In this document: positions 995 to 16,110 of the stretch, one piece after another
How the letters are laid out: every line of letters starts with the position of its first letter
Position numbering within the stretch: position 1 is the stretch's first letter
Program-made: the position numbers and the translations under genes
Assembly: GCA_047602425.1 (NCBI GenBank)
Contig: JASGHG010000001.1
Coordinates: forward strand, 4,448,001 to 4,512,000
DNA from: Nibricoccus sp.
GTDB taxonomy: Bacteria; Verrucomicrobiota; Verrucomicrobiia; Opitutales; Opitutaceae
Direction of reading: 5' to 3'
Length of the DNA stretch: 64,000 nt
The notes under the pieces: generated by a model
Database searches by the model: none
What the model saw: only the letters and a program-made list of their open reading frames with translations
What the model was told of the DNA's origin: nothing

Positions 995-1013
995 ATGGTG
1001 GAGCAGACCGGGA
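995..1013 (-). repeat. att core (displaced copy of the tRNA-Ala 3' end)
   Basis: ATGGTGGAGCAGACCGGGA, identical to 16034-16052. Confidence 0.95.
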
Positions 1014-1036
1014 CAGCGATCTGCTCTTATCCGACA

Positions 1037-1063
1037 GAAAAGTTGCCGAAAAGTTGTCGAAAA
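1037..1063. repeat. 11-bp tandem repeat, candidate integrase arm-type site (left arm)
   Basis: GAAAAGTTGCC GAAAAGTTGTC GAAAA, 23 bp inside the att core; GTTGYC core shared with 15916-15956. Confidence 0.55.
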
Positions 1064-1687
1064 TTAAGCGGCTGCCGGGCAAGTGTGCGAGTGAGCGTAG
1101 CTTTCTAGCTCGGGTAATGAAGAGTATCCTTCGACTACTTCAGAACGCGCAATTTTTCGGCTCAACCACATTAATGCACGCGCTAAAATATTCACAGACT
1201 TCGTAATTGACCTGATCGAGTCGCGGAGAATGAGCGCCAAGATAGTGGCGGGAAAAAGTGACAAGAACAGAAGTGAAGCGAAAACAGATGAGAAAATGAC
1301 ATAGGAGAGGACGGTGTAGTACGCCTCTTTTCGAGCTTTTTGAATGAACTCTGCGATCTCTTTGTTTTCAGTCGCGAATTTCTCGGTTAACATTTCATTG
1401 ATGCACTGCCGGAGCTCCGAGTTGGTTTTGATCTGGCGATCAATTAAGCTTAGTCGATAAATCGAAACCGTATCGAGAAAACGAATTTGGTTGTTCACTA
1501 GGACGCGCAAATTAATGTATGTCTTATCGGCTAATCCGTGCTCTCGTGACGCGTAGAAGGAACGAACTTTTTCTCGGAGATCAAAGAGCTTATCGCGGTG
1601 ATGATCTAAAACTGTTCGACGGATCATTTTGTTCCAAACGAATAGGAACAGGAGAATACCGAATCCGAATAGTAGTTGTTCATTCAT
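1064..1687 (-). CDS. Prophage cargo membrane protein, unknown function (207 aa)
   Basis: N-terminal hydrophobic helix plus a second hydrophobic segment; AT-rich; start overlaps the stop of 1680-2093. Confidence 0.7.
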   Translation of the reverse strand: MNEQLLFGFGILLFLFVWNKMIRRTVLDHHRDKLFDLREKVRSFYASREHGLADKTYINLRVLVNNQIRFLDTVSIYRLSLIDRQIKTNSELRQCINEMLTEKFATENKEIAEFIQKARKEAYYTVLSYVIFSSVFASLLFLSLFPATILALILRDSIRSITKSVNILARALMWLSRKIARSEVVEGYSSLPELESYAHSHTCPAAA

Positions 1688-2093
1688 TGTCTTTGGGTGT
1701 TTGACCTGTCGATGTTAGACCGCTGCTGGGTCGGTCGGGATCGTTTTTTTCTGCGATTTTTTGGTAGTGTGCTTTTTCCTGAATGGCCCGTTTTTTCCCT
1801 TTTCTCTCGTACCAATAACCTGCACCACACAGTCCAGCAAGTGCATATCCGAAGATAGTTCCGAGCTTAAATTTTTCTACAAAATTGGAAAGTGCATTAA
1901 TCGATGAGGGATTCTTATCAGACATCGACACACAGCCGTTCATAATGAAATATATCGCCAAAACCGCTGCGGCGCAAATAGCAACGGTCTGGAACAGCTT
2001 AACTACGGATTCGGTTATCCGAGCTATAAGTGATAACTTGCCTATTTCATAGTCCCGCTTATCCATCCCACTGCTTTTTCGTTGGTTAGCCAC
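1680..2093 (-). CDS. Prophage cargo two-TM membrane protein (137 aa)
   Basis: Two hydrophobic segments, basic C-terminus, AT-rich, coupled to the downstream ORF. Confidence 0.7.
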   Translation of the reverse strand: MANQRKSSGMDKRDYEIGKLSLIARITESVVKLFQTVAICAAAVLAIYFIMNGCVSMSDKNPSSINALSNFVEKFKLGTIFGYALAGLCGAGYWYERKGKKRAIQEKAHYQKIAEKNDPDRPSSGLTSTGQTPKDNE

Positions 2094-2108
2094 GAGATCG
2101 CCGTTAGA

Positions 2109-2288
2109 TTATCTTCCGGCTGGCGCTTCAGCAACGAGGCAACCGCTTTCAAAGGGAACAAGAGCGACAAGCTCCGACCCATTGAAAACTGACGTATGGC
2201 CTACTTCCTTGCCTCCAAAGGAGATATGGGAACCTTGTACTGAGGTGACGAGTGTTCCAGTTGAAGTAAATATGTCGTAGGTTTTCAT
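2109..2288 (-). CDS. Small hypothetical protein (59 aa, not in ORF track)
   Basis: Own translation MKTYDIFTSTGTLVTSVQGSHISFGGKEVGHTSVFNGSELVALVPFESGCLVAEAPAGR*; fills the gap between co-oriented cargo genes. Confidence 0.5.
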   Translation of the reverse strand: MKTYDIFTSTGTLVTSVQGSHISFGGKEVGHTSVFNGSELVALVPFESGCLVAEAPAGR

Positions 2289-2320
2289 CGTGTTTTTATA
2301 AGGACTCAGGGCTAAGACTG

Positions 2321-2833
2321 TTACAATTTTAGGTCGCTGAATCCTTTTTGAATCTGTTTGTCAGCGTCCTTTATCATTTCTTCCGCTTTTCGCTGTTCTT
2401 CATTCATTTTTATTACCTTCTGTATCAGACTGTTGCGGAGATTGGCATATTTGCCGTTTGTTCGCTGAATACACTCTTTGACAAACTGATACTTAGTTTC
2501 GAGGTTTACCGGTGAACAGGTAAGAACGAGCACATTCCCTTGGGGATCTACCAAAAGGTCCTTCCTATTCATTCCTGAAGGGACATTATCTAGTTCCTGT
2601 TTTAAGAGTTCACGCCATTGTGGATCAGTAGTTCCATTGAGTTGAAACGAGTAACTCGCGAGATTAGCTTCGGCTCGTTGAGTAGCTTGATTTTTTGCAA
2701 TGATCTTTATCTCTGGGGTATCTAAATACCGATATCTTGGCTGGGCGGGGCGATCTGCAAAAAGGTCGCCATTCTCAATTCTCAAGTACTCTAAGGGGTG
2801 GGCGGGTAGTTGCATGATAATTTTCCTCTCCAT
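2321..2833 (-). CDS. Prophage cargo hypothetical protein (170 aa, coiled-coil-like C-terminus)
   Basis: Long AT-rich ORF with a charged helical C-terminus (MNEEQRKAEEMIKDADKQIQKG). Confidence 0.7.
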   Translation of the reverse strand: MERKIIMQLPAHPLEYLRIENGDLFADRPAQPRYRYLDTPEIKIIAKNQATQRAEANLASYSFQLNGTTDPQWRELLKQELDNVPSGMNRKDLLVDPQGNVLVLTCSPVNLETKYQFVKECIQRTNGKYANLRNSLIQKVIKMNEEQRKAEEMIKDADKQIQKGFSDLKL

Positions 2834-2947
2834 TAGGGGTTATCTGAAACTGTATGTATCAGATAGTTAAGGAAACGCTCACATTGCAAGGGTAAATTAT
2901 TTGCTAAAACGGGCTGCGGGTTACATAACGAAATGGGATAATCTGGG

Positions 2948-3244
2948 CTATCCAGCCTTTTTGCCCGTAGCCTTACGGCGCGTTTCTTCGGCAACCAAAC
3001 GGGCGCGGTCTTCGCCTGTTTCGGCGGTGTTGATAACCGCCGAGACGAATTCCTTTTCCGGCAGAAGGCGGATCGGGAACGTGAAATAGCCTTTTTCGCG
3101 GTAAAAGGCGACGGCTGATTCGCCGAGACGGCGGAGTATTTCGGCGGGCTCAAGGCCATGAGTCTTTTTGATGTCAGTCAGTCCCTCTAACAGAGCCTTG
3201 GGCATTTTCAGCGTCATTTGGGCGTCAAAGATTTTTTCAGCCAT
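2948..3244 (-). CDS. Ribbon-helix-helix (CopG/Arc-like) DNA-binding protein, candidate prophage repressor
   Basis: QMTLKMP-KALLEGLTDIKKTHG-EPAEILRRLGESAV fits the beta-alpha-alpha RHH pattern; divergent from the early operon; start set at MAEK (ATG 3244). Confidence 0.55.
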   Translation of the reverse strand: MAEKIFDAQMTLKMPKALLEGLTDIKKTHGLEPAEILRRLGESAVAFYREKGYFTFPIRLLPEKEFVSAVINTAETGEDRARLVAEETRRKATGKKAG

Positions 3245-3381
3245 AGTTAAAGAATTCATAGACTTGTGAGACATGCGAGAATTTTACTTGTCTCATAAGT
3301 ATTCTAAGTATTCTGATAATACTGTCGCTCGGTTCGGGAGTAGTTATTTCGCCATAAATACCCCGGACCGATGCGGCCTTT
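3245..3381. promoter_or_regulatory. Divergent AT-rich control region (candidate lysis/lysogeny switch)
   Basis: Inverted repeat ACTTGTGAGACA (3262-3273) / TGTCTCATAAGT (3289-3300), 11/12 match; direct repeat TAAGTATTC x2 (3296-3313). Confidence 0.55.
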
Positions 3382-3612
3382 ATGGCCGAAATCAAAAAGA
3401 ACTCTGCTGCCGGTCTATCCGGTGTGCTGAAACTCACAGCGCATAGCTTCGCAAGCATCGCCCGTCCGGGTGATGTTTTTTCGTTTGGTGGCAAGCGGTA
3501 CACCGTCGAGTCAGTCAGCCTGTTGCCGGTCATTCTCCGCACAACCTCGCGTGAGACGCTTAGGCCGAATGCAGACGCGGACATTCTGTGGGAAAGGGTG
3601 GGTGACTCATGA
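3382..3612 (+). CDS. Phage hypothetical protein (76 aa)
   Basis: First ORF of the rightward operon; ATGA overlap with the next ORF. Confidence 0.6.
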   Translation: MAEIKKNSAAGLSGVLKLTAHSFASIARPGDVFSFGGKRYTVESVSLLPVILRTTSRETLRPNADADILWERVGDS

Positions 3613-3719
3613 GCGGCTGGGAAATCGCTTTTTGGATTTTGCTTGGTTGGAACCTTAGCGGAGCGCTCTTCGTTGTATCTGCGCTCTGTCTCGGTAAGCG
3701 GAAGGGGAGGGCGTCATGA
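3609..3719 (+). CDS. Small single-TM phage protein (36 aa, not in ORF track)
   Basis: MSGWEIAFWILLGWNLSGALFVVSALCLGKRKGRAS*; ATGA overlaps at both ends. Confidence 0.6.
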   Translation: MSGWEIAFWILLGWNLSGALFVVSALCLGKRKGRAS

Positions 3720-4171
3720 GCGTATGTTGCCTTTTTACCTCGATTTCGGCGTCCGTCTCGATGGCGAAGAAACGCCACGGACTTTGTTGCGAGCGCGGTT
3801 GTTCGAATCCGCGCAAACCCGACCGCCGCCGTTGCCATCGCTGCAATCAACAGCGCTGGCGTGAAGCCCACCCAATCGAAAGCGCTTATGCTAACCTTCG
3901 GATGCACGCTAAAGAGCGCGGCAAGCCGTTTACCCTCACAATCGAACAGTTCCGCGCTTTCTGCGAAAAGACTGGCTATCACAAGCGGGTAGGGGTCTCT
4001 CCGCGCGCATTGACCGTTGACCGCATCGACCCGCGCGATGGATACGAGGCGGGCAATATCCGGCCACTGACGCACCAGAGAAATTCAACCCGCCGAGACA
4101 CGTTCACAGAGGCGGAAATTGCGGCCGCTCGCGAGAGTTGGGCGGCATCTACTGGCCCGGTGGAATTTTGA
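3716..4171 (+). CDS. Cys-rich zinc-binding, HNH-like endonuclease-domain protein
   Basis: CCERGC...RCHRC zinc motif, then TVDRIDPRDGYEAGNIRPLTHQRN (DRID-x4-GY-x2-GN-x-R-x6-N pattern of phage HNH-like nucleases). Confidence 0.65.
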   Translation: MSVCCLFTSISASVSMAKKRHGLCCERGCSNPRKPDRRRCHRCNQQRWREAHPIESAYANLRMHAKERGKPFTLTIEQFRAFCEKTGYHKRVGVSPRALTVDRIDPRDGYEAGNIRPLTHQRNSTRRDTFTEAEIAAARESWAASTGPVEF

Positions 4172-4174
4172 GCC

Positions 4175-4438
4175 ATGAGCGAAGAGGAAACAGCACGCCT
4201 CGACCGGATAGAAACGCTTTTGCGTGCCGTGCTCTCGAAGCTGGAAGACAGTAGCGCGCTGAATAAAGCGGCCTTCACTCCCGCCGAGTTCGGCGCGCTC
4301 GTGGGGCGTTCCGCGCGTTGGGTGCAAGGCAAGGTATCCATCGGGCTGATACCTCGCGTTAAAGCGGCCGGAACGCGCAACGTGCTGATTCCGGCCTCTG
4401 CGCTCGAATCGTTTCAACAGGGGAGGGCAAAGCTTTGA
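4175..4438 (+). CDS. Excisionase-like HTH DNA-binding protein
   Basis: FTPAEFGALVGRSARWVQGKVSIGLIP, HTH_17/Xis pattern. Confidence 0.65.
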   Translation: MSEEETARLDRIETLLRAVLSKLEDSSALNKAAFTPAEFGALVGRSARWVQGKVSIGLIPRVKAAGTRNVLIPASALESFQQGRAKL

Positions 4439-6228
4439 CACGAGCCGAACAGATTCGCGAGCAAATCGCCAAAAGCGCCGCATGGTGGCGCGATCATGGC
4501 GCGGCAGTTCGTGAATCGAGCGCGCAACGCGAGCGCGAGCACAACGGCCGGATGATTTATGATTTCGATTATCGCGAGCGGGAGAAAACCGCTTCACGCA
4601 TGGCATATGCCTACGCCAGCCGTGCGGGCCTCAATCGGCCGCAACCGAACCGTTCCCATCCTCCGCGCTTTGTAGGTGGTGAATTGGTTCACACGGCGGA
4701 TAAGGTTTCCCTCCTTGGTGATGCTGACGATTCAGCTTTTGAGGAGTACCGTTCGCCGGTCGTTTCGCAGATTCGCCAACACGAGCGCGAAGAGGCGGAA
4801 AAAGACTTTCTTGAGTTCGCCCAGGCGGAAACCGGCATGGAGCTTTCAGACGAAGAGTACCGGAAATTGCGCAAGAAATACCGGCAGACGATGGAACAGA
4901 GCCGCGCGATTGCGGAACGCCTAAAAGGCGTCGGGATTGATCCGTATCGGCATGATGAATACGGGCTTTATATTTGGTGGTTGCACTCGAAAACCTTGGA
5001 GGCACTTCCGAAGTATCGGCGCATTTGTTTACTGCCGTATATCGCCGCCATGACTCGCGCGCCAAAGCTGGCGGCGCTTGAATACTTTATCCAGAGGCAT
5101 CCCTATTCGCGCTTCTGGACTTTCACGACGGGCCGCCGTTGCACCGTCAATGAAATCCCTGAGCGGCTGGATTGGCTGTTCTACAAGCTCCGCGAGTTGA
5201 ACAAAGAGCTGTCTTACCGTTGGGGCTTGCAGATCGTTTTCCGCACAACCGAATTCGGTACGCTGGAAGGCGATGAGCAGGGCAACCGATTTGAGGGCGT
5301 ACAGATCAAAATGGAGTCGGTCGCATGTGGTACGGTTGAGCGTGAGGAGCCGGGCTCGATTGAGCGCAACGAAAAGGGCGAGGCTCTTTATCATCCGCAC
5401 GCGCATTGCGTGATTCACTGCGCTGGCGGTTACATCAAGCCCGACACTTGGCAGCGGGTCATAAAGTTCGTGCATTCCTACTGGCACCGTGACGGCGAGA
5501 AAATTGTTTGGCTCGCAGACGGTGTGATTCGCGACGCGCGCGAGTGCTGCAAGTACGTCACGAAACCGGGCGACATCGTGAAGCTCAGCGATTCCGAGTT
5601 GAGCGCTTTCTACGCGGTTACGGCAAACCGTCGCCTTGTCCGCCCGATGGGTATCCTTGCCGATGAAATCCGCGCGCGGAAAGAGAGCGGTAGAATTTTA
5701 CGCCGTCAGCGGTTGGGGAGCCGTATGCAATGGGCTGAGCGGTTAAACCACAACCGCCTTGATATGCAGACGCCGGGCGAAAAAGAAGCGCTCGAAAACC
5801 TGCAAGACGCCTACGCGCTTACCGAAGAGTGCAAGCGGTTAGCCAACCTAGAGCCCGACATCGGCGGGCGGTTGTTGAGCGGTTCTTTTGCGGTTAATTG
5901 CCGTTCCGTGGAGGTAACGAAGGTTATGGCGCGTATCGGCCCGGCAGCGGGTCCGACGCCTTTTAAAGAACCGCGCGTTATCGTCATGACGAACCGTGCG
6001 ACGCCTGACATGAGCGCCGTTACCGGGCATCCCCTCGTGTTCCGCCTGTGGGCGCAGACCGTCGCAGAGTGGGAGGCCGGGCGGTCGGCCTCTGCCTTAA
6101 TCAAGGTCCACACGGGCACACTAACTGGGGAAGAATTCCAAGGTGACTTGCTCGGGATCGACCCGCCGCCCGATTACGAAAAGCGCTTTGCGCCGTTTCT
6201 CGAAACCGCTCCCGCAATCCTCAACTGA
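4435..6228 (+). CDS. Rolling-circle replication initiator (HUH endonuclease, 597 aa)
   Basis: Motif I FWTFT, motif II YHPHAHCVIH (HUH) and motif III KYVTKP in canonical order; TTG start overlapping the upstream stop. Confidence 0.8.
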   Translation: MTRAEQIREQIAKSAAWWRDHGAAVRESSAQREREHNGRMIYDFDYREREKTASRMAYAYASRAGLNRPQPNRSHPPRFVGGELVHTADKVSLLGDADDSAFEEYRSPVVSQIRQHEREEAEKDFLEFAQAETGMELSDEEYRKLRKKYRQTMEQSRAIAERLKGVGIDPYRHDEYGLYIWWLHSKTLEALPKYRRICLLPYIAAMTRAPKLAALEYFIQRHPYSRFWTFTTGRRCTVNEIPERLDWLFYKLRELNKELSYRWGLQIVFRTTEFGTLEGDEQGNRFEGVQIKMESVACGTVEREEPGSIERNEKGEALYHPHAHCVIHCAGGYIKPDTWQRVIKFVHSYWHRDGEKIVWLADGVIRDARECCKYVTKPGDIVKLSDSELSAFYAVTANRRLVRPMGILADEIRARKESGRILRRQRLGSRMQWAERLNHNRLDMQTPGEKEALENLQDAYALTEECKRLANLEPDIGGRLLSGSFAVNCRSVEVTKVMARIGPAAGPTPFKEPRVIVMTNRATPDMSAVTGHPLVFRLWAQTVAEWEAGRSASALIKVHTGTLTGEEFQGDLLGIDPPPDYEKRFAPFLETAPAILN

Positions 6229-6230: not shown

Positions 6231-6515
6231 ATGAAAACGCCCTTTCCCGCCTTCCGTGTGCAGTGTTGGAGCCAGTCATCGGCCGCCATCTACGCCGTGA
6301 CGGTGTTGGAGGTCGATGAGGTTTCGGAAACCGCTCTTTGCCGTGAATCCATCGGCACAACCGCTCGTGAATTCCGAATCGGTTTTGACCAACTCGCCAC
6401 GACGCCGGAACGGCTCGCGGAGCGGTTAAGCCATTTACTTTCTGCCCTACCTGTACGAGCGCCGAAAACCGCTTTGGCTGTGAAGACTACAGGGAAGGGC
6501 GGTTCTAAAACATGA
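6231..6515 (+). CDS. Phage hypothetical protein (94 aa)
   Basis: Tightly packed, co-oriented ORF; ATGA overlap with the next ORF. Confidence 0.65.
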   Translation: MKTPFPAFRVQCWSQSSAAIYAVTVLEVDEVSETALCRESIGTTAREFRIGFDQLATTPERLAERLSHLLSALPVRAPKTALAVKTTGKGGSKT

Positions 6516-6709
6516 AACTGCCAGCATCACCTGAACCGCTCGCGCCGAAAGATTTGGCGCTACTGATAAACCGCTCTGAGCGCTGGGTCCGTCGTCAATG
6601 CCATGCCGGGAAAATCAAAGTTCTCCCGGTTGGCGTTCCGTACCGGATACCGCGCACGGAAGCGGAGCGCTTTCTTCAACCCTCTGAAACCGCTCGCAAA
6701 AAACCATGA
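6512..6709 (+). CDS. Excisionase-like HTH protein (65 aa)
   Basis: LAPKDLALLINRSERWVRRQCHAGKI...YRIPRTEAERFL, typical Xis/HTH_17. Confidence 0.75.
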   Translation: MKLPASPEPLAPKDLALLINRSERWVRRQCHAGKIKVLPVGVPYRIPRTEAERFLQPSETARKKP

Positions 6710-7551
6710 GTGAAACCCTGTCTCCCGATAACGTAACGGCCGCCGTGTTGGCCGTTGCTCCGCGCGTTGGAACGGCTGTGCCGACTCCAAGCGCTCAACC
6801 GCCCGCCGCCGAACCGCAAACGGCGCAGGCCGAAACAACCGCTAAAGAACCGCTCAAGGATCGGGCCGGGCGCGAATTCGACGCCAAGCGGTTCCGAACC
6901 AATCCAGACGGCTCGCCTTACCTCAACGGGAAAGGGCTTTTCATGCCGCGCGGCGGCCGGAAGCCGAAAGGCGCGACTTTGCCGGGCTCTGCTCCGATTG
7001 CTTCGCCGGCCGTTTCGCCTGCCGCCGATCCGTGGAGCGCATCGGATCGTGCTGCCGCCGCCACGCCGCCGCCTGTAGCTCAACCGGGCGAGCCTGAGGC
7101 ATCCGCCCAACCGCAAGGCGCGCCGCCGCCTGTTGGTTCGAGTACCGATGCTGCCGAGGTCGGATGCCGTGTCGCTTATACGTTGACCGGTTTGGCGCTG
7201 GGTGTACCGGAAGAATCGACGCCGCCCGCTGCTGAGCACAAAAACTACGTCGAGACGGTTGCAAAGTATTTCGATTATCGAGGCTGGCGGTTTGTCGGTG
7301 GAGTCGCGCTTTGCTTTTTGGCGGCCGCCTATGTTTTAAGGCTAATTTCAAAGCCAAAAGTAGAGAAGCGGCTAAGGGATCTTTTTGGTGGTTCGTCTGA
7401 GCCTGAGCTAAAAAACGTCACGCCTGCGCCTGAGATTTCGGCTGAACCTGAAAAGAGCAAAGTGCCGCCGCCCGCCGCCGTTCCGCCAATCATCCCGCCA
7501 GCTAACGAACCTGTCCAATTCACCAAACCCTTTGTCCCGCCAATGCCATGA
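6706..7551 (+). CDS. Pro/Ala-rich phage membrane protein (281 aa)
   Basis: Low-complexity flanks, a small DRAGREFD...DGSPYLNGKG...RGGRKPK module and one TM (FVGGVALCFLAAAYVL). Confidence 0.7.
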   Translation: MSETLSPDNVTAAVLAVAPRVGTAVPTPSAQPPAAEPQTAQAETTAKEPLKDRAGREFDAKRFRTNPDGSPYLNGKGLFMPRGGRKPKGATLPGSAPIASPAVSPAADPWSASDRAAAATPPPVAQPGEPEASAQPQGAPPPVGSSTDAAEVGCRVAYTLTGLALGVPEESTPPAAEHKNYVETVAKYFDYRGWRFVGGVALCFLAAAYVLRLISKPKVEKRLRDLFGGSSEPELKNVTPAPEISAEPEKSKVPPPAAVPPIIPPANEPVQFTKPFVPPMP

Positions 7552-7721
7552 ATCCATTTATCAAATACTCTCTCGCGAGTCTCTACCGCTTGGCAGTTCT
7601 TGCTGGGCTTATTTACGTCGTTCGCCTCGTGTTGCTCATTGGCGCAGGTGGTTGGCTATTCCTGATTCTTCCCGCCGTGCTCGTGTTTCTCGCCGTCGCT
7701 CCTAGCTCGAAAGTTGAATGA
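7548..7721 (+). CDS. Small two-TM phage membrane protein (57 aa, not in ORF track)
   Basis: MNPFIKYSLASLYRLAVLAGLIYVVRLVLLIGAGGWLFLILPAVLVFLAVAPSSKVE*; ATGA overlaps at both ends. Confidence 0.65.
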   Translation: MNPFIKYSLASLYRLAVLAGLIYVVRLVLLIGAGGWLFLILPAVLVFLAVAPSSKVE

Positions 7722-7861
7722 TGTACCTTCACGTTCACTTGATAATGTTTCAGGCGATTGGTTCCGTGCATGCCGTTCCGTTTGAATTTCTCGATGCGGC
7801 TGGTGTATGGCGGTTGTTATATATCGACCCTGAAACCTGTGCTCCGGTTATACTGCCATGA
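7718..7861 (+). CDS. Small phage protein (47 aa, not in ORF track)
   Basis: MMYLHVHLIMFQAIGSVHAVPFEFLDAAGVWRLLYIDPETCAPVILP*; ATGA overlap with the ATPase start. Confidence 0.5.
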   Translation: MMYLHVHLIMFQAIGSVHAVPFEFLDAAGVWRLLYIDPETCAPVILP

Positions 7862-8388
7862 GTATCCATGTCGGCATTTTTGGGCCGTCGCTTTGCGGAA
7901 AGAGCTACGTCGGGAAAGCTCTTTCGCGTTATGCTTACGGGCATGGTCGCGCGAGTCTCGTTTGTGACCCGAATCTCGATGAGTGGGGGCCTCAAGCGTT
8001 AGTGTTTCGTAGTCTGAGCGCTCAGTTTAAAAAAGTATTTTGGACACGGAAAAACCTCGTCGTTTTTATCGATGAAGCAACGCTAACCATAGACAGAGAC
8101 AACGAACTCATTGACCTGTTTACGCGCGGCCGTCACCAAGGCCACCAGCTTTATGTCTTAGGCCATCGCGCGGTTAATTTGCTGCCGATCATGCGCGATC
8201 AATTTGGGACATTGTTCCTTTTTCGCTGTTCGCCATCGGATGCGAAACTTTGGTCTGAGGATTGGAGTGAGCCGCGAATAATGGAGGCAACGGGACTGCC
8301 GCGCTTTGAGTTTATTTTAGCGCGCAAATTCGCGGCCAAAGACGGCCAGCATCTCGTCACGCGCGGCCGATTCCCGGCCGTCCTCTGA
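7858..8388 (+). CDS. Genome-packaging ATPase, FtsK/HerA (PM2 P9/A32-like) type
   Basis: Walker A GPSLCGKS at the extreme N-terminus, Walker B VVFIDEA, RGRHQG arginine motif; 176 aa with no TM; shortly upstream of the MCP. Confidence 0.85.
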   Translation: MSIHVGIFGPSLCGKSYVGKALSRYAYGHGRASLVCDPNLDEWGPQALVFRSLSAQFKKVFWTRKNLVVFIDEATLTIDRDNELIDLFTRGRHQGHQLYVLGHRAVNLLPIMRDQFGTLFLFRCSPSDAKLWSEDWSEPRIMEATGLPRFEFILARKFAAKDGQHLVTRGRFPAVL

Positions 8389-9078: not shown

Positions 9079-9912
9079 ATGCGCATCAACGAAAAAATCG
9101 CCGGTATCAACGGCTCTCTTCTGCCCGGTTCGACCGCAACTCTCAAGTTGCCGGTGAATCGGCGCTATCACTGGCTGAAGTTTTTCCTTACGGCCAACAC
9201 TACGGCGGTCGGTCACGCCGCTCTCACCAACGCAAAGGACATCGTCGAGTCGATCCAGCTTTATGTTGGCGGCCGTTTGATCCGCGACGTTACGCCGCTG
9301 TTTCTTCAGATGCTCTGCAAGCTGAATGCCATCACCGGCATTTCTGCTCTTGAATTGCCGATCTTCTTTTCGGAGCCATGGCGCGCGTCCGTGATGGATG
9401 AGCAGGCAACCGCTTGGGACGTGAACGAGGTCACTGATTTCTCGGTGCGTATCAAGTTTCTGAGTACAGCACAGGACATCGGCCTTACTGGCCTCGCCTG
9501 TTACGACGGCGGCCGCGCTCGTCTCGCGAACAACCAAGTTGTGCTCAACATCGTCAAGCATCTGCCCTTCTCGGGTTATGCCGTCGCCGGTTTCCGCGAT
9601 TTCACGGAGTTCCCGGTCAACCTGCCGATTCAGCGCATCTACTTCACCGGCGCCGATGCGAACCAAATCACGAAAGCCGAAGTCATCGCGGACAGTTTCA
9701 AGATTCACGAGGCGGAAGAGGCGGAAAACGCCGCTATCCTCGCGGACTATCGACTCGACGCCAGCGCCTTCGATTACCCGCTCTGTTTCGATCCGCATCA
9801 ACAGCTCTTTGATACGCTCATGGTTCAGCGCGATCTCACGGTTCGCGTGTTCACTGCCAGCGCTGGCGACGTGCGAGCGATCCTCGAACAGCGCGCGGGT
9901 GCCTACATCTGA
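9079..9912 (+). CDS. Double-jelly-roll major capsid protein (PM2 P2-like, 277 aa)
   Basis: N-terminal PGSTATLKLPVNRRYH, IESIQLYVGGRLIR-like and LPIFFSEPW blocks recall the PM2 P2 pattern (from memory); size, beta-rich composition, AAGGA RBS, and position between ATPase and membrane proteins all fit. Confidence 0.82.
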   Translation: MRINEKIAGINGSLLPGSTATLKLPVNRRYHWLKFFLTANTTAVGHAALTNAKDIVESIQLYVGGRLIRDVTPLFLQMLCKLNAITGISALELPIFFSEPWRASVMDEQATAWDVNEVTDFSVRIKFLSTAQDIGLTGLACYDGGRARLANNQVVLNIVKHLPFSGYAVAGFRDFTEFPVNLPIQRIYFTGADANQITKAEVIADSFKIHEAEEAENAAILADYRLDASAFDYPLCFDPHQQLFDTLMVQRDLTVRVFTASAGDVRAILEQRAGAYI

Positions 9913-9949: not shown

Positions 9950-9982
9950 GCCCTCGCCGCCGCAATCGGCGGGGGCTTTTTT
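9950..9982 (+). terminator. Intrinsic terminator/attenuator after the MCP gene
   Basis: GCCCTCGCCG-loop-CGGCGGGGGC followed by TTTTTT. Confidence 0.7.
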
Positions 9983-9985
9983 CAA

Positions 9986-10327
9986 ATGCAAGAAACCGAA
10001 CAAATCGCTACACGCACGGACGGGCCTGCCAATAACGGCGGCATCATGAATCTTTTCACGACGGCCGTACAGACGGCCGGGCAAGTGTATGGTGCAATCT
10101 CGACGCAAAACAATGCGAACAAGGTTGCTTCCGCCCAGGCGGACGCTACACGCGCCGCCGCTCAGACTCCCGTCATTTCGCCGACTCCGGTTGCCGCTCA
10201 GGCATCCACCGTCGTTGCTGGGGCTCCGGCCTCCACGTGGATCAAGGGTGTGAGTAACACCGTCGTCATTGTTGGCGGCGTGGTTCTCGTCGTTGTTCTC
10301 GGCCTGTTTTTCTTCCGTCGCAAATGA
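9986..10327 (+). CDS. Virion membrane protein with C-terminal TM anchor (113 aa)
   Basis: A/T/Q-rich body, TM VVIVGGVVLVVVLGLFFF, then RRK. Confidence 0.75.
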   Translation: MQETEQIATRTDGPANNGGIMNLFTTAVQTAGQVYGAISTQNNANKVASAQADATRAAAQTPVISPTPVAAQASTVVAGAPASTWIKGVSNTVVIVGGVVLVVVLGLFFFRRK

Positions 10328-10749
10328 TCGACCTCGCCTCACTTCTCAGCAGTTCCGGTGGTTCATCGGGCGGCGGTGCGGCTGGCGGCGTTGGTGCGGC
10401 GGCGGGCATCGCCGGTTCTCTCATGTCCGCCACGCCCTACGGCGCGGCTTTGGGCGCGGCCTCAAGCGTTCTGTCGAATGCTACGGCTGACACGCCTACA
10501 AGCGTCACTAGCGGCTCTGGATCGTATCAGGGCGGCTCTTTGACGGTCGGCAACAAACAGGTTGGCGGCCGTGGTAATTCGGCCGGCGCTACGAGCGCAA
10601 CGGCCTCGCAAACACCCGGAGACAATTCGAGCGCCTCGCCTTCGAGCGTGTCTGCAACAGCGAAATCCCAAACCACTCTTTACGTCATAATCGCGGCCGC
10701 CGTTGTGTTGATCCTCGGTGGAATGTTCGCATTCGCGCGCCGCAAATAA
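10324..10749 (+). CDS. Gly/Ser-rich virion membrane protein with C-terminal TM (141 aa)
   Basis: Low-complexity G/S/A body, TM, then ARRK; ATGA overlap. Confidence 0.75.
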   Translation: MIDLASLLSSSGGSSGGGAAGGVGAAAGIAGSLMSATPYGAALGAASSVLSNATADTPTSVTSGSGSYQGGSLTVGNKQVGGRGNSAGATSATASQTPGDNSSASPSSVSATAKSQTTLYVIIAAAVVLILGGMFAFARRK

Positions 10750-10761
10750 CCGGAAACTCCC

Positions 10762-11274
10762 ATGGGTTGGTTCAGCGCATTTTCAAAAGAGAATAATTCG
10801 GCGACGACAAATCAGACGACGACGAACTATACCGATTCCAGCGCGAACGCTGGCGGTGACAATTCGTTAGCGATTGCTCAAGGCGGTCAATATGCTGGCG
10901 CTGGCGGTATTTCGGCTGGCGCGGGTGCAAACGTGTCAATAACGACCTCCGATCCTGCAACGGTTGCGGCCGCGCTTCATACTGTCGAAGCGAACAATCT
11001 GCTTTCGGCGACTCAATATCAGGCGTCTTTGAACACGCTCGCCGGGGTTCATTCTGTTGCGGCGAACTCGAACAAGGCGACGCAGGATGCCGCAAATCTG
11101 GCGATTCAGAGCACGCAATCTCTCGCCTCTCAGCTTTCGGGAAAAGGGGCTCTCGAAACGCCACAGACAAACGCCTCTATCGTTCAAACCGTCAGCAAAT
11201 ACGCCAGTATCGCGGCCGTCGCAATCGCGGCCGTCGTGGCGCTCGCATTGTTCATGCGGAAAGGGAAGAAATGA
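10762..11274 (+). CDS. Virion membrane/DNA-delivery candidate with C-terminal TM (170 aa)
   Basis: MGWFS start, T/N/A-rich body, TM, then RKGKK. Confidence 0.75.
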   Translation: MGWFSAFSKENNSATTNQTTTNYTDSSANAGGDNSLAIAQGGQYAGAGGISAGAGANVSITTSDPATVAAALHTVEANNLLSATQYQASLNTLAGVHSVAANSNKATQDAANLAIQSTQSLASQLSGKGALETPQTNASIVQTVSKYASIAAVAIAAVVALALFMRKGKK

Positions 11275-11855
11275 CTCCTACAGCGGCACAATTTCACGAG
11301 ATTGAAATCCCGCCCGGTGCGGTCCGTACCGCGTGGGGCGAAGGCGATTCATTCCTTGTCGTTCAATCCAACGTCAAGCTTGAGATTCTGCGCGATGGCG
11401 CGCCGTTCCTTCCTTACGAACAAGGTGACCGCGAGGATTTGCCGCCGGGCATTTCGTTCAAGCGGTTGGAAGTCAAAAACCCGAACCTCGCGACCGCCTA
11501 CGTTAAAATCTATTCGGGCTACGGCCGCCGCAATCAGAACCGCCCGACTGTCATCGAGCCTCCAACCATCATCAAGGGGCAAGCGTTTACTTCCCTAGCG
11601 GCATCGCCTGCGGCGGGGTCCAGCGTTACACTGAGCGGCATTCCCGCGGCGGGTCAGCTTCGCCGTAAGGCGGTCATTATCTCGAATCAGGACGCCGCGA
11701 ATCCGGTCTATATTAAAGACGCGGATGGGAACTTTTGCGAAGCCGTCGAGTTTAAGAGCACGGCTATTATTCACGTTTCCGGGGCAATAACCATCGTCAA
11801 CACGACGGCCGCGCCGATTCCTGTATGCGTGTCCGAAGTGTGGTACACGCCGTAA
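11271..11855 (+). CDS. Penton/vertex protein candidate (beta-rich, 194 aa)
   Basis: Alternating beta-strand pattern (RRKAVIISNQDAANPVYI), no TM, position after the membrane proteins; function inferred. Confidence 0.55.
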   Translation: MTPTAAQFHEIEIPPGAVRTAWGEGDSFLVVQSNVKLEILRDGAPFLPYEQGDREDLPPGISFKRLEVKNPNLATAYVKIYSGYGRRNQNRPTVIEPPTIIKGQAFTSLAASPAAGSSVTLSGIPAAGQLRRKAVIISNQDAANPVYIKDADGNFCEAVEFKSTAIIHVSGAITIVNTTAAPIPVCVSEVWYTP

Positions 11856-11859
11856 GAAA

Positions 11860-12291
11860 ATGTTTTCGTGGGTAAATATCCAAAAGCGCCCAACGCCGAC
11901 AATGTACGAGCGGCGCGCGAAAAAGGCTTTGCTCTTCGTTGAGCGTCTCGCGGCTTCTCCGTCGTTTGTTGGCGCATTGCTGAGGTTGGCGGTCGTCGCC
12001 TTTTCAAAGTCGATACCGCCTGTTGCTGAAGGTGTTTCATTTGTATCAGGACGTTTGTTCGTTCCGATTGTGAACGTCTACGCTTTGAATGAAAGCGCGG
12101 GCTACGCGTCCGCGTTTGTTTCGGCGCTTCTCAAAAGTGTCATTATTGGATGCGGAACTTACACTGATCGTTTTTCATCGAATACCGCTTTCGCGTCCTC
12201 GGCTCTTCGCGTCGTGGTGGTGCCTACCTCCACGAATAACTTTTTTCCAGTCAATCAATCTACCGGGTTTGTCTCCGCTTCGCTCGTATGA
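11860..12291 (+). CDS. Phage structural/adaptor candidate (143 aa)
   Basis: Co-oriented; ATGA overlap with the spike candidate. Confidence 0.55.
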   Translation: MFSWVNIQKRPTPTMYERRAKKALLFVERLAASPSFVGALLRLAVVAFSKSIPPVAEGVSFVSGRLFVPIVNVYALNESAGYASAFVSALLKSVIIGCGTYTDRFSSNTAFASSALRVVVVPTSTNNFFPVNQSTGFVSASLV

Positions 12292-13451
12292 AACTTTTGG
12301 TTGTTAACAATAACCTTTCGTTCGGCTATAAAATCGAATTCCTCCGAAAAGGAAAGGTCATCGCAAAAACGCCCTTCCGTCGTCACATGTTGACGGACTC
12401 GTTTTTGAACAATTGCGCGGCGTTTCCGTTTCTTGACTGCCTTGGGATGCCTGTTTTGGGGGAGTCGGTTTCGCCAACGCCTGTGCGCCGTGATTCCGGT
12501 TCAATTACGTTCACGCAGGCGGCAAACCGAATTACAGCCAGCTCTGGATTTTTTCAGATTGGGGACGTTGGCCGTCTCTTTAAGTGGGGTGTGGGTTCTG
12601 GTGGCCTAGAAGTCTATATTACAAATTTCGTTTCGAGCACGCAGGTAGATGTAACCGCGTCGCCTGATGTTGCCGTTGCCGCTGTCGGTACGGTTTGGTA
12701 TGTCAACACGGATGCGCTTTTGAATCCAATTGCGGGCCTCACATGGGGTTGTTTGAACAATGCGAGCGAAAATAACACAACCTACAACACGGTGGGCAAT
12801 GTCTGCATCATCACGCACAATCGTGTTTTTTATTCTTCCCCCTTCACCGTTGCAAAAACGATTTCGGAAATCGGCTTCACGCATCCTACCGCTTTCGTGA
12901 GTCTATCTGATCGGGACGTGGTTACTCCCGGCGTCGCGTTGGGCGTTGGTGATCAAGCTAAGGTCACGACTCAGTTTATCATGAACGTGACGCCTTGCAC
13001 GTCGCAGGCTATCGCGAACTTTGCGACTGGTTTTGACTCGTCGGGCAACGCGAAGTTTGAGGCGTTCAACAACGACTGTTTCCGCACGATTAACGCAGGC
13101 GGCGGCATACAAGGGACAGCTAACATGGAACCAGACCAACCGCCCACTATTGGCGTTATGCTGGAGGATTTCACGCTACAGGCGTTCGATCCGAATGGGA
13201 ATGTGATTGCCGGGACAAATTTTTTGAAGGCGGCATCTCAAATCGCCTACGGTGCCGGTTCATACTACCGCGATGCAAAGGCAGTGTACGCGATCAGTGA
13301 GGGGAACGGGACAATTTACGGCTTCTACCTTTCCCCATGGTACAACCGCCGCCAGTACACGCTCAAGCTGACTACGCCTGTCGTAAAAAACTCAACGCAA
13401 GTGCTCGAAATAACCGCCCGGAAGTCGTGGAGCAGGGTTTTAACAAATTAA
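12288..13451 (+). CDS. Spike / receptor-binding protein candidate (387 aa)
   Basis: Largest structural ORF, T/N/G/V-rich beta composition, C-terminal YGAGSYYRD...KNSTQVLEITARKSWSR. Confidence 0.6.
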   Translation: MKLLVVNNNLSFGYKIEFLRKGKVIAKTPFRRHMLTDSFLNNCAAFPFLDCLGMPVLGESVSPTPVRRDSGSITFTQAANRITASSGFFQIGDVGRLFKWGVGSGGLEVYITNFVSSTQVDVTASPDVAVAAVGTVWYVNTDALLNPIAGLTWGCLNNASENNTTYNTVGNVCIITHNRVFYSSPFTVAKTISEIGFTHPTAFVSLSDRDVVTPGVALGVGDQAKVTTQFIMNVTPCTSQAIANFATGFDSSGNAKFEAFNNDCFRTINAGGGIQGTANMEPDQPPTIGVMLEDFTLQAFDPNGNVIAGTNFLKAASQIAYGAGSYYRDAKAVYAISEGNGTIYGFYLSPWYNRRQYTLKLTTPVVKNSTQVLEITARKSWSRVLTN

Positions 13452-13463
13452 CATATCCAAAAA

Positions 13464-13865
13464 ATGGATACGATTACAAAGACGCGAATTCTGGTTGGGA
13501 AACAGTTCGGAATTTCAGAGGCGGACGCCATCACTCCCGCGAATCTTTCGCCTGAGGATCGCACGCGTTTGTTTGATTATACCTTCGCTTATGTCGCGCA
13601 GCATCCTGAGCAGTACGAACCACGACAAGTTGAGATCGCCAAGCGTCATGTTGCCGCGTGGGGCACGAATACGCCGCTTTTAGATACGTCATTTGATTGG
13701 GGTCTACTCGCCCGCGAGGTGGGCGAAAACGTACTGAAGGCAGGCGAGGCTGTCGCGAGCGTGGGGCAGGGCGTGCTTAATACTTTCAAGCTCGGTTCGT
13801 GGCTTATTCCAGTCGCGGCCGTCGTTCTTGTCGGAATTTATCTTTGGAAGGCATTCAAAAAATGA
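13464..13865 (+). CDS. Virion membrane protein with C-terminal TM (133 aa)
   Basis: C-terminal WLIPVAAVVLVGIYLW, then KAFKK. Confidence 0.7.
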   Translation: MDTITKTRILVGKQFGISEADAITPANLSPEDRTRLFDYTFAYVAQHPEQYEPRQVEIAKRHVAAWGTNTPLLDTSFDWGLLAREVGENVLKAGEAVASVGQGVLNTFKLGSWLIPVAAVVLVGIYLWKAFKK

Positions 13866-14047
13866 CGCGTCAATCTTTCATCGCTGCCGCTGGCGGCGTG
13901 GCCGGTTGGGCCGCAACCTTTTCCCTGCCTGAATTCGCTGCCTCCTTCGCTGCGCTGGCTACTGGCGTTTGGATGATTACGCAGACCGTGTTGGCGATCC
14001 GTCGCCAGCGCTGCACGGATTACACCTGTAAGCATCGCAAGCCATGA
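13862..14047 (+). CDS. Holin-like small membrane protein (61 aa)
   Basis: MTRQSFIAAAGGVAGWAATFSLPEFAASFAALATGVWMITQTVLAIRRQRC...; hydrophobic with a basic tail; ATGA overlap (start 13862 preferred to 13799). Confidence 0.55.
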   Translation: MTRQSFIAAAGGVAGWAATFSLPEFAASFAALATGVWMITQTVLAIRRQRCTDYTCKHRKP

Positions 14048-14181
14048 ACGAACTAGACGACATGATAGAAACGCGGACGGTTAAAGCGCCAGTGGTGGCG
14101 GCTTCGCGGTCTGCCTATATCGGGCTGGTTGTTGTCATCGCGGTAGCGGTTGCGCTGCTTTGGTCCAAGGCGCGCCGATGA
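14044..14181 (+). CDS. Small single-TM protein (45 aa, not in ORF track)
   Basis: MNELDDMIETRTVKAPVVAASRSAYIGLVVVIAVAVALLWSKARR*; ATGA overlaps at both ends. Confidence 0.6.
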   Translation: MNELDDMIETRTVKAPVVAASRSAYIGLVVVIAVAVALLWSKARR

Positions 14182-14813
14182 AACCCGCTATTTTTATCCT
14201 CATTGTCTCATGCCTCGCGGGCTGCGTGTTTGAGGCTCAAACCGCCTCGCGTGTGGATCGAAACGGAAAGCCGAAAGTGACGCAGAACGGCCCGGCCGAA
14301 AATCCCGGCCGCGCGAGTGTGGAAAAAACCGTCGTGACTGTCCCGATTCCGGCTGGCTCGAAAATTTCTCAAACTCCCGCGCCGTCCGTTCCCGCTGCCA
14401 CTGGCAAGCCGGACATGGCGGCCGGGATCACTATTCAAACTTCCGCGCCCACGGAAATGCGTATTGAAACGACGCGGGAATCTGTTGAAGGCGCAACCAC
14501 TCCGAAACCGTCGCCACCACCAAGCCCGGTAGAAGTTGCGCGCGGGAAGGGCGTGCGGCTGTTTTATTGGATCGCTGGCGGGTTCGCCATCGCGTCCGTT
14601 GTCTCAGCGGTGCGGAAATATCTTTGGGCGGCCGTCTGCTTTGGCGCGGCCGCGCTCGTGACGGTGTTAGGCGTCAACGTTGTTTCTGAGGAGTGGGTGA
14701 TTCGCGCGGCCGGTGTGCTGGCGGTCGCTGGCGTCGTGTTCGTTGCCGCTTGGAAGATCATCGCCGCGCGTCACGGGCTGGCGGGAAACCAAGCCGGGAC
14801 AGTGGCGAAATAA
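14178..14813 (+). CDS. Lipoprotein with C-terminal TM helices (unimolecular-spanin-like)
   Basis: MKPAIFILIVSCLAG-C lipobox, P/T-rich soluble linker, about three C-terminal hydrophobic helices; last gene of the late operon. Confidence 0.6.
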   Translation: MKPAIFILIVSCLAGCVFEAQTASRVDRNGKPKVTQNGPAENPGRASVEKTVVTVPIPAGSKISQTPAPSVPAATGKPDMAAGITIQTSAPTEMRIETTRESVEGATTPKPSPPPSPVEVARGKGVRLFYWIAGGFAIASVVSAVRKYLWAAVCFGAAALVTVLGVNVVSEEWVIRAAGVLAVAGVVFVAAWKIIAARHGLAGNQAGTVAK

Positions 14814-15958
14814 CGGGCGGCCGCCTCTGCGGTCGCGAGTCCCTTGTAATGCTGGTAAAGCGTCCGGGGCGAGGTGTGGCACAGGATGACGGCGGTTGCG
14901 GCCGCGTCCCGGTGTAAGGCGACATGATACGAGCAAAACGAATGCCGGGCGACGTTGCCGGGATTCTCGACGCCAGCCAGCCGGAAGACATCGCTTTTGG
15001 CGCGCTCGTAGTCCTTGCCGCAAAGTGTCCATGCGGCATCGGGAGCCGTTGCCAGCCAGATCCAAAGATTTCCGGGCAAGCCTTCGATGTACTGCGGCCG
15101 CTTCGTTTTGATCTTCGCGGCCGGAATGCGCATGCCGCGCGCGTCAAAGTCGATTTCGCTTCGGTTGAGCTTGGCGGCCGTCGAATGACGTAGGCCGGTG
15201 AAAAACTCCAACGCGAGCCGGGCGCATGCTTCCGGCCGTTGGGCTTGAGCCGTGGCGAAGATCGCGGCGGTTTGCTCTGGCGTGAGGATTTCCACCTCGT
15301 CTGTCGTCAGGGGCGGTTTCTCGACGTTGCGGAACGGGTTTTGACCGTCAAAGACGCCTTCACGGATTGCCCAATTGAAAAGAGCCGCGCCGTGCTTGTG
15401 GTGGTTACGTTTGGTGGTTGGGGCGAAGGGTAGGGCGCGCAACCAAGCGCGCAGTTGGTCGGCTGTGATTTCACCGGCCGATTTCGTTCCGAACGTCTCA
15501 GCGAAGCGGGCTAAATCGCCCTTCGTGTGGGAAAGTGACGCCTTGCCGGTGCCTTCGGTTGAGCGCGCCGCTAGGTAGCGGTTTATTAGCTCGGAAAGGC
15601 GGATGTTTGACGTTGCGGCGTTCGGGCCGCCCTTAGATAGCCAGAAACGCGCTACGTCCAAAGGATCGGCTTGCCCGATGAGTTCGCGGAATTGCGTCCA
15701 AAGGTGCCAGTCGGACGGGTTGAAATCCATCACGGCGCGGCCGTTGAGTTCCGTTTTTGTGACGAGCGCTTTTGCCGCTTTCTCTCGTTTCGGCTTTGTG
15801 TCGTAGGCTACGCACTTGCGCGCGCCGTCCGTTGCTCGCCAATGTAGGAGGTACGGCCGGGGCAGTCCGGGGCGCTCGGAATAGCGGATACCACGCGGCG
15901 GTTTCCAGTCGCCTTTGTTGCCCTTTTGTTGCCGTTCCTGTTGCTGTTTTGTTGCCAT
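14771..15958 (-). CDS. int: Tyrosine recombinase/integrase
   Basis: TGLRHS (R), KIKT (K), NVARHSF (H/N-x-x-R), LCHTS (H), YQHY (Y); adjacent to the tRNA att site. Confidence 0.92.
   Translation of the reverse strand: MATKQQQERQQKGNKGDWKPPRGIRYSERPGLPRPYLLHWRATDGARKCVAYDTKPKREKAAKALVTKTELNGRAVMDFNPSDWHLWTQFRELIGQADPLDVARFWLSKGGPNAATSNIRLSELINRYLAARSTEGTGKASLSHTKGDLARFAETFGTKSAGEITADQLRAWLRALPFAPTTKRNHHKHGAALFNWAIREGVFDGQNPFRNVEKPPLTTDEVEILTPEQTAAIFATAQAQRPEACARLALEFFTGLRHSTAAKLNRSEIDFDARGMRIPAAKIKTKRPQYIEGLPGNLWIWLATAPDAAWTLCGKDYERAKSDVFRLAGVENPGNVARHSFCSYHVALHRDAAATAVILCHTSPRTLYQHYKGLATAEAAARYFATVPAWFPASP
15916..15956. repeat. Four TGTTGC direct repeats with 11-12 bp period, candidate arm-type sites inside the int 5' end
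   Basis: TGTTGC at 15916, 15927, 15939 and 15950. Confidence 0.55.
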
Positions 15959-16034
15959 AAAAAAAGCAAAACTAAGACGAAAAGTGCAAAAGTTTCGCGG
16001 GGCTTACCTCTGGGGCTGGGATTACGAGGGTAAA

Positions 16035-16110
16035 TGGTGGAGCAGACCGGGATCAAACCGGCGACCTCGTCGTTGCGAACGACGCGCTCTATCAACTGAG
16101 CTACTGCCCC
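16035..16110 (-). tRNA. tRNA-Ala (anticodon CGC), prophage integration site
   Basis: GGGGCAGTAGCTCAGTTGATAGAGCGCGTCGTTCGCAACGACGAGGTCGCCGGTTTGATCCCGGTCTGCTCCACCA; cloverleaf, G3.U70 identity pair, encoded CCA. Confidence 0.95.

Follow-up and report, generated by a model that had tools for sequence, protein, structure and literature searches.

The window analysed here is a stretch of 64,000 nucleotides of Nibricoccus sp. DNA (contig JASGHG010000001.1), which carries close to its start an element of 15,039 bp that is integrated at the 3′ end of a tRNA-Ala gene. We consider it likely that this element is an intact temperate tailless phage of the integrase type, which belongs to the PM2-like Vinavirales and there to the Verrucomicrobia-associated group described in 2022. 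The element works like PM2 and carries two firm Vinavirales markers, a predicted double jelly roll capsid protein and a packaging ATPase. A previous reading, made from the letters without database searches (the sequence-only reading), had proposed that a 19-bp repeat of the tRNA 3′ end bounds the element, and that an integrase, a HUH replication protein (Rep), a short ATPase and a protein of 277 amino acids (aa) lie inside. The repeat and all four genes are present where it had placed them.

The 277-aa capsid protein (9079-9912, plus strand) matches Pfam P2_C with 33.8 bits, compared to a cutoff of 25. Its AlphaFold2 model, computed from an alignment of 17 sequences, has a predicted local distance difference test score (pLDDT) of 87.9. 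When this model is compared to the Protein Data Bank (PDB) by Foldseek, the top match is PM2 P2 (2vvf; E 2.3e-18, template modelling (TM) score 0.80, 17% identity), with the capsid proteins of STIV and PRD1 behind it. A sequence profile retrieves only two PDB sequences, both of them double jelly rolls (2vvf at E 2.4e-6). The fold had been set beforehand as a test of the sequence-only reading, and as modelled the protein is indeed a double jelly roll of the PM2 type. A cellular double jelly roll homologue was also considered and rejected because of the viral gene context. A scan of IMG/VR with the capsid alignment found nothing.

The ATPase (176 aa; 7858-8388, plus strand) is encoded upstream of the capsid gene. 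Residues G9, G14 and K15 of the Walker A motif, and also R92, are invariant across seven homologues. The family profile aligns with STIV B204 along the full length (E 1.1e-4), in agreement with the A32-type ATPases that had been suggested for comparison; the top row is a HerA domain with partial cover, and two of the seven family members show a weak match to Pox_A32. By sequence, this is a genome packaging ATPase of the A32/FtsK-HerA type. The sole PHROG match is labelled 'terminase large subunit', but we reject this label, because 176 aa are too few for a terminase and a nuclease domain is apparently lacking.

The replication initiator (597 aa; 4435-6228, plus strand) is a HUH rolling-circle protein similar to Rep_1, although the Pfam match is below the cutoff (E 0.0019). 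In an alignment of 70 sequences (the query plus all sequences above 450 aa among the 83 best matches), H320/H322/H324 (HxHxH) and Y374/K377 (YxxK) are invariant throughout and a further motif, FTxT at residues 228-231, is nearly so. Homologues of this Rep form 357 clusters. The tyrosine integrase (14771-15958, minus strand) matches PHROG 1 (E 8.5e-26), has the catalytic motifs R257, K, R338-H, H361 and Y370, and has 90 homologues with up to 90% identity. It is not a host XerC/D, as it scores far below the NCBIfam cutoffs and the true XerD is encoded elsewhere in the genome. A paralogue of 30% identity is found at G000:C1:1892080-1892868, while the other element proteins have no second genomic copy.

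The direct repeat that defines the ends is perfect, has a length of 19 bp and starts at 995 and 16034. It is the longest exact match between the two element ends and occurs only twice in the 5.16-Mb genome. One attachment site (att) copy (16034-16052, plus strand; found by exact repeat search) is within the intact host tRNA-Ala(CGC) gene (16035-16110, minus strand), the CCA end of which supplies 18 of the 19 bases, and the copy distal to the tRNA (995-1013, plus strand) duplicates this end. The integrase gene adjoins the tRNA gene and is transcribed away from it. At the distal copy, the G+C content (GC) steps from 0.58 to 0.45. No further copy was found upstream within 19 kb, with up to three mismatches allowed, and the 20 largest families from a generic repeat finder do not include the att pair.

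In one genome of the same genus (G402), the DNA after the tRNA corresponds to that found 13 kb beyond the distal att copy in the window genome; in a further genome (G168), the two flanks of the insertion site are far apart. The 13 kb just before the distal copy (G000:C1:4435800-4448990) are missing in G402 between tRNA-Ala and the next shared gene. This stretch codes for a two-component pair, an elongation factor G paralogue, a low-GC ATPase and repeat-rich open reading frames (ORFs); in G168, a copy of the elongation factor G gene with 89% identity is distant from the tRNA. The 13 kb may represent an earlier island inserted at this tRNA; an att copy at the far end was not found.

The host 16S rRNA is 94% identical to that of Oleiharenicola sp. 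Vm1, an Opitutaceae metagenome-assembled genome (MAG) and a Verrucomicrobiae MAG (three of the four genomes tested; the fourth gave no match), which agrees with the phylum that had been proposed for the host. With the window genome counted, the capsid gene occurs in 4 of 401 genomes of the phylum by single-protein search and in 9 of 401 genomes of the order by profile search. DNA of the element in 30 relatives amounts, among the matches listed, to 46 bp in the Rep gene only. Because the capsid gene is rare and the element DNA is absent in relatives, the region is a mobile element and not fixed core genome, as had been expected. Near-identical proteins occur in other datasets (capsid, 91%; the 387-aa protein described below, 89% and 86%; integrase, 87% and 90%), and the best tblastn match to a cultured phage has an E-value of 0.8. 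Relative to locus L029, the nearest DNA relative, nonsynonymous (dN) and synonymous (dS) divergence are 0.21 and 1.28 for the capsid gene and 0.15 and 1.08 for the gene at 9986. Of four genes compared, three have a dN far lower than dS, as under purifying selection, and one has a saturated dS.

Prophages of this kind have been catalogued, though not cultured. Yutin et al. (PMC9502842) placed Verrucomicrobia-associated prophages in Vinavirales clade A, called them 'extremely divergent, possibly degenerate' and reported them to be without known lysins and without P15/P16 (section 3.2). The host phylum and class (Opitutae) are the same as for the window. The published maps share the order rep_c, cons_a4, ATPase, MCP, cons_o, cons_r and cons_s (about 190-210 aa), and two of the first four S3 maps include genes for about 145 and 385 aa without annotation, similar to those in the window. 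None of these four maps extends much beyond the spike region, and neither att sites nor an integrase are drawn in them; the word integrase does not occur in the main text. Layout and host, rather than a direct comparison of sequences, indicate that the window element is a well-preserved new member of this group. The novelty claimed initially was thus overstated, since such prophages of Verrucomicrobia (Opitutae) were described and mapped in 2022. What is new are the defined ends, the switch between dif and integrase, the vertex module with a tail-fibre fold and a lysis cassette in which no enzyme is detectable.

With PM2 (Corticoviridae) the element has in common the capsid fold, a short packaging ATPase, a HUH Rep and the order of the structural module. 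It differs in being temperate with an integrase, in its extra genes for a shaft and a tail-fibre fold, and in its size. That it is half as large again as PM2 holds true (15 kb versus about 10 kb), but this is ordinary for the group. With an Opitutaceae-level host, not a gammaproteobacterial one, and so low a capsid identity to P2, the element is, judged by sequence, not a member of Corticoviridae proper (clade B). The small circular double-stranded DNA genome with an exchangeable replication gene, which is typical of Vinavirales, is also found, with circularity seen in relatives only. General Pfam and PHROG scans, in which the PM2 proteins were not compared singly, gave no match to the P5 lysin or to the P14/P15/P16 regulators. 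The 12-gene core of Vinavirales includes an endolysin, which the Verrucomicrobia group is without and for which the window has no Pfam/PHROG match.

We compared the element to 39 related loci (4 from genomes, 32 from metagenomes, 2 cut from genome assemblies, and 1 from IMG/VR, found with the alignment of the 387-aa protein). The order in the long loci is Rep, 281-aa protein, ATPase, capsid, membrane genes, proteins of 194, 143, 387 and 133 aa, a small hydrophobic protein and a lipoprotein, and in L005-L009 the gene order is the same as in the window. In four loci (L005, L006, L007, L010), one end has a full dif-like site and the opposite end a XerC-side half site. L008 is a 13,433-bp contig with a terminal repeat of 15 nt, which is a dif-like half site. 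The five relatives with both ends visible (L005-L008, L010) have 12,995-14,710 bp. In the three chromosomal genomes tested, the element boundary is the sole match to the full dif pattern.

The 9-base dif motif CGCACAATA occurs on one fixed strand in 10 of the 18 loci of at least 7.6 kb (14 sites versus 0.64 expected; 6 of 14 loci when the four defining ones are left out), compared to a single site each on the opposite strand and for the reversed motif. In the more distant L056 and L058, paired dif-like sites have a slightly different sequence. Likeness to the general structure of dif sites and to the published consensus (PMC12715192) suggests that the dif-like ends are XerCD sites. Where ends are visible, most relatives are inserted at the host dif and have no integrase, whereas the window element uses its own integrase at a tRNA. 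No dif-like motif is present in it, even in the gap between repressor and Rep where relatives have their site. The window host has a XerD above the cutoff and a dif-like site at G000:C1:4690619-4690637, near which a second exact half site was not found. Skew switch and dif do not coincide, as the maximum of the cumulative GC skew (26,212) is some 0.5 Mb away from this site.

An integrase homologue is found in only one of the 39 loci. In this locus, L038, lysis genes, a 45-bp tRNA 3′ half, integrase, repressor and Rep follow each other on a contig without host DNA, and we thus interpret the arrangement as an attP junction. L008 and L038 are apparently excised forms, which argues against a degenerate group. 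In a midpoint-rooted capsid tree of 43 rows, from which rows with less than 200 matched residues were excluded, the window element groups (100/97) with dif-type Opitutaceae members, apart from L038. In the simplest reading, dif use is the common state and the integrase was gained at least twice.

A few further traits of the relatives were observed. In L039 (2368-4140) and L042 (1812-3644), which are in the same capsid group, a family B DNA polymerase replaces the HUH Rep, and the DNA examined contains neither dif motif nor integrase. L008 is binned in a Gemmatimonadetes MAG, but it is a complete circle-like contig, and its placement in this bin may be erroneous. In L037, about 1 kb (11433-12575) contains several dif-like half sites, which suggest a tandem array or a satellite at dif. 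A tRNA-Met is predicted by ARAGORN in L009 (4066-4141), upstream of Rep, with another prediction in L049.

There are precedents for the parallel use of a phage-encoded integrase and of XerCD from the host at dif. Both int-type and dif-type tailless double jelly roll prophages have been described in Vibrio (PMC12715192, PMC11630473), and dif-like att sites have been described for Jorvik (PMC10589892). The Vibrio prophages also have a variable cargo region of 1.7 kb near the integrase (PMC12715192), as does the window element, but it is located between int and lysis genes and not between att and repressor. They belong to another phylum and target dusA and five other loci, tRNA genes possibly among these; the target here is a tRNA 3′ end. 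Jorvik is reported to have two lytic enzymes (PMC10589892), and none is recognised in the window element. With its tRNA att, its own integrase and no dif-like motif, the window element is not an IMEX (dif-integrating, XerCD-dependent); the IMEX traits of a dif-like att and no own integrase are found in L005-L008 and L010. A literature search, with subscription papers mostly outside its reach, returned no induced or cultured tailless phage of Opitutaceae and no dif use by this group.

The cargo region consists of two coupled low-GC membrane-protein genes (1680-2093 and 1064-1687, together 1064-2093; minus strand). They match PHROG 27816 and 13156/24550, for which no function is assigned there, and 1064-1687 matches PADLOC PDLC02977 '1TM-TIR' (E 4.6e-11), a label for which a literature search found no paper. 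A defence or exclusion module is possible. Two further cargo ORFs of 59 and 170 aa (2109-2833, minus strand) have sub-cutoff matches only. The putative repressor (2948-3274, minus strand) is divergent from the main operon and 49% identical to the same-position gene in L037; its positional equivalent in L008 has a PHROG 876 repressor match, and by eye we read a ribbon-helix-helix in it.

The cargo has a GC of 0.44, the core of 0.56 and the integrase of 0.61. These differences, the lack of an integrase in most relatives and the DNA after the tRNA, which differs in each same-genus genome seen, would fit an island of integrase and cargo in tRNA-Ala that was entered by an integrase-less dif-type phage, so that the 15,039 bp would not be one genome. 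We consider such a composite very improbable. There is no dif-like half site inside the element, the repressor-Rep gap included, the integrase gene overlaps the last lysis gene by 43 nt at its stop end, and in L038, a contig without host DNA, an integrase and a tRNA-type attP occupy the corresponding position. Furthermore, three integrase and three 387-aa homologues have identical longest-contig sizes (15,073; 14,123; 31,704), which suggests shared contigs.

Having named an integrase-type phage as our preferred reading, we turn to its presumed vertex, for which three consecutive genes on the plus strand are candidates. The 194-aa protein (11271-11855) is kept in 13 of the 39 loci scanned, and it matches cons_s, labelled 'P1 spike' in the maps of PMC9502842, in size and place. 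A weak Atlas lead, PRD1_P5_spike_N, covers 32% of one cluster at rank 16, and a 7-sequence profile did not match PM2 P1. By analogy, it is probably a penton/P1-like vertex protein. The 143-aa protein (11860-12291) has about five repeats of 24 residues and a conserved N-terminal QxxPxP (13-sequence alignment), and we propose that it forms a spike shaft.

The 387-aa all-beta protein (12288-13451) is a candidate receptor-binding protein with a tail-fibre fold. It matches PHROG 4176 'tail fiber protein' (E 7.8e-11), as do 33 of its 37 homologues. Its AlphaFold2 model (pLDDT 90.6) resembles tail fibres of Stenotrophomonas and Xanthomonas phages in BFVD (TM by query 0.56 and 0.46; the best row, unnamed, has 0.62). 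The best solved-structure match in VIA is HFTV1 tail chain 9h4p_BD (Z 12.6, root-mean-square deviation 4.5, 244 aligned), in a list that mostly concerns one small domain (residues 64-140); Foldseek gave no PDB match at E 0.001. The HFTV1 paper describes a baseplate hub with a C-terminal carbohydrate-binding domain (bioRxiv 2024.12.09.627619). Predicting a complex of the 143-aa and 387-aa proteins gave no answer (score 0.00). From operon position and modelled fold, the 387-aa protein would be located on the virion and bind a receptor.

The resemblance of the 387-aa protein to PHROG 4176 tail fibres and to 9h4p_BD is in fold and weak sequence similarity, but its gene, unlike those of tailed phages, sits in the operon of a tailless virus. 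The earlier statement that terminase, portal and tail genes are missing is correct for terminase and, in Pfam/PHROG scans of the element genes, for tail tube, sheath, tape measure and portal families, but it does not extend to the 387-aa protein with its tail-fibre match and fold. Short tail-fibre domains of another family (pfam07484) have been recorded in six Vinavirales genomes (PMC9502842, supplement). A 42%-identical 387-aa homologue occurs beside a repeat-rich gene in L028 (3979-6095), a 43.9-kb IMG/VR virus contig; no other gene of the window element was matched within the 16 kb examined there, and a head-protease-like gene is nearby.

The putative lysis cassette, also on the plus strand, starts with two small hydrophobic proteins of 61 aa (holin-like) and 45 aa (13862-14181), recognised by position and hydropathy. 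A hydrophobic gene of 51-95 aa precedes the lipoprotein gene in L005-L009, L030 and L037, and the 61-aa protein presumably acts as a holin. The lipoprotein predicted next (211 aa; 14178-14813) has a signal peptide, a lipobox-like motif and C-terminal membrane helices. Unimolecular spanins combine an N-terminal lipoprotein signal with a C-terminal membrane anchor and are encoded beside a holin. The layout is similar here, with two or three C-terminal helices rather than one, and a spanin-like role seems plausible. The cysteine motif is present in all eight positional equivalents checked and the helices in seven (L009 differs). Pfam and PHROG gave no family match, and the Atlas neighbours are tailed-phage proteins without names.

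It could be argued that the virus is active but has no classical lysis, being released slowly via membrane disruption or vesicles, or passively when the host dies. No wall hydrolase was found anywhere in the group and there are many membrane proteins, but the holin-like gene and the lipoprotein with its inner-membrane helices are located at the place of the PM2 lysis factors P17/P18, and the PM2 lysin P5 was recognised only after profile and structure work (PMC9502842). Such an exit thus seems quite unlikely to us, and a divergent wall hydrolase or endolysin may exist despite the null Pfam/PHROG scan.

The element has 29 called genes, which cover 94% of the 15,039 bp. None is visibly broken, in accordance with the claim that frameshifts are not seen. 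Coupling of nearly all genes by ATGA had been overstated: such overlaps occur at 11 of the 28 junctions, with TTGA at one more. The plus-strand operon has 22 junctions: the genes overlap by 4 nt at 12 of them, and are separated by at most 12 nt at 6 and by 47-222 nt at 4. By a hydropathy cut-off, 10 of the 23 plus-strand genes have a membrane helix (gene 11860 being borderline), close to the ten or so membrane proteins that had been counted.

Several points weigh against an intact phage. There is no direct sign of excision or expression of the window copy, which is presumed to be inducible, and the exact empty allele was not seen in G402 or G168. The dN/dS values are evidence on the lineage, not on the present state of the window copy. 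The P1, P3, P6, P7, P10 and Gp-h assignments are deduced from position and hydropathy, and profiles of the 194-aa and 133-aa proteins gave no PM2 match and no viral PDB match. By Pfam and PHROG, no wall hydrolase is found in the 29 genes. The same holds for another 148 ORFs, which comprise every other ORF of 105-339 aa in the element, almost all of those in L005-L007, 11 of the 56 in L008 and six more. At the same time, Opitutaceae have peptidoglycan (PMC5303756) and the host genome codes for two penicillin-binding protein transpeptidases. As to dif, CGCACAATA is absent in 8 of the 18 long loci, in several because contigs end, and the capsid tree, with two labelled integrase rows and a midpoint root, cannot strictly order gain and loss.

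If the element were a cryptic or defective prophage, of the same origin but no longer making or releasing particles and kept for its cargo, the lack of a recognisable endolysin or P15/P16-type regulator and the low-GC cargo with its PADLOC profile match would be explained; Yutin et al. left this open for the group (PMC9502842). However, the att repeat is perfect, the coding density is high, the core genes are unbroken and the catalytic motifs are intact. The lack of a lysin is common to all relatives tested, apparently excised ones included, and the element DNA is absent from the 30 relatives except for the 46 bp among the matches listed. A defective prophage is thus unlikely in our view.

For an intact phage, we propose the following life cycle. 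The integrase would insert the 15,039-bp circle into the tRNA-Ala 3′ end, by which the tRNA is rebuilt, and the small divergent repressor would silence a single long plus-strand operon. Upon induction, the circle would be excised and copied by the HUH Rep in rolling-circle mode, and the A32-type ATPase would package the genome into a membrane-lined double jelly roll capsid. The vertex would consist of the P1-like 194-aa protein, the repeat shaft and the 387-aa receptor-binding protein, with a fold that is common to tail fibres of tailed phages. Exit would involve the holin-like protein and the one-piece spanin-like lipoprotein, while the wall would be degraded by an enzyme of the host or by a phage protein not yet recognised. 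The lineage would mostly rely on dif and host XerCD, and this branch may have swapped in a block of integrase, attP and cargo between lysis genes and repressor.

A wider generalisation is possible, but we consider it rather doubtful. Opitutales tailless prophages might be an active family-level lineage which (i) carries a shaft and receptor-binding module shared with tailed phages on a double jelly roll vertex, (ii) leaves a peptidoglycan-walled host by a holin-like protein and a one-piece spanin with no encoded wall hydrolase, and (iii) swaps both its integration route (dif or tRNA integrase) and its replication gene (HUH Rep or polymerase B). If this is true, the complete genome could lead to the first culturable tailless phage of the phylum. 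The 'possibly degenerate' group of 2022 becomes testable, since the element has precisely defined ends and an intact set of genes within a closed genome, and since some relatives appear to be excised. Should the element be inducible, this would settle whether the group has an unknown lysin or consists of dead prophages (PMC9502842), and a tail-fibre-type protein would be seen in action on a virion that has no tail. Few genetic tools exist for Verrucomicrobiota, and an inducible element would be a candidate small integrating vector for this phylum.

The remaining features are all on the plus strand. The operon starts with a 76-aa ORF without family match (3382-3612), followed by an HNH-type endonuclease (3716-4171; PHROG 3322, E 2.9e-15) and a small, excisionase-like DNA-binding protein (4175-4438; Pfam HTH_17, E 0.0027, below cutoff). 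Downstream of Rep are a conserved 94-aa ORF and a 65-aa HTH_17 protein (6231-6709), detected by Pfam scan and comparison with relatives. The 281-aa Pro-rich membrane protein (6706-7551) upstream of the ATPase is kept in relatives; by its position, which is that of cons_a4 in the maps of PMC9502842, it would be the positional equivalent of PM2 Gp-h or a PRD1 P10-like assembly factor. Two small ORFs (7548-7861) code for 57 aa with membrane helices and for 47 aa. A 52-aa membrane protein (8873-9031) precedes the capsid gene at the PM2 P7 position, as in PMC9502842. Three membrane proteins with C-terminal helices (9986-11274), with dN well below dS relative to L029, occupy the P3/P8/P10 positions, and a conserved 133-aa membrane protein (13464-13865), kept in relatives and without PDB profile match, occupies that of P6. 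The candidates for P7, P3/P8, P10 and Gp-h, which fit by size, place and hydropathy, have no Pfam/PHROG match. A promoter scan gave 5 sites versus 7.3 expected. Directly 3′ of the capsid gene is a terminator-like hairpin (9950-9986), top-ranked by pattern match only.

In the window, the slot between ATPase and capsid gene holds a basic 83-aa ORF without match (8399-8650) and a gap of 222 bp. In relatives, variable inserts occupy this slot (L005:9172-9719, L009:9485-9778, L008:4740-5348), which by eye resemble toxin-antitoxin pairs and a methylase ORF.

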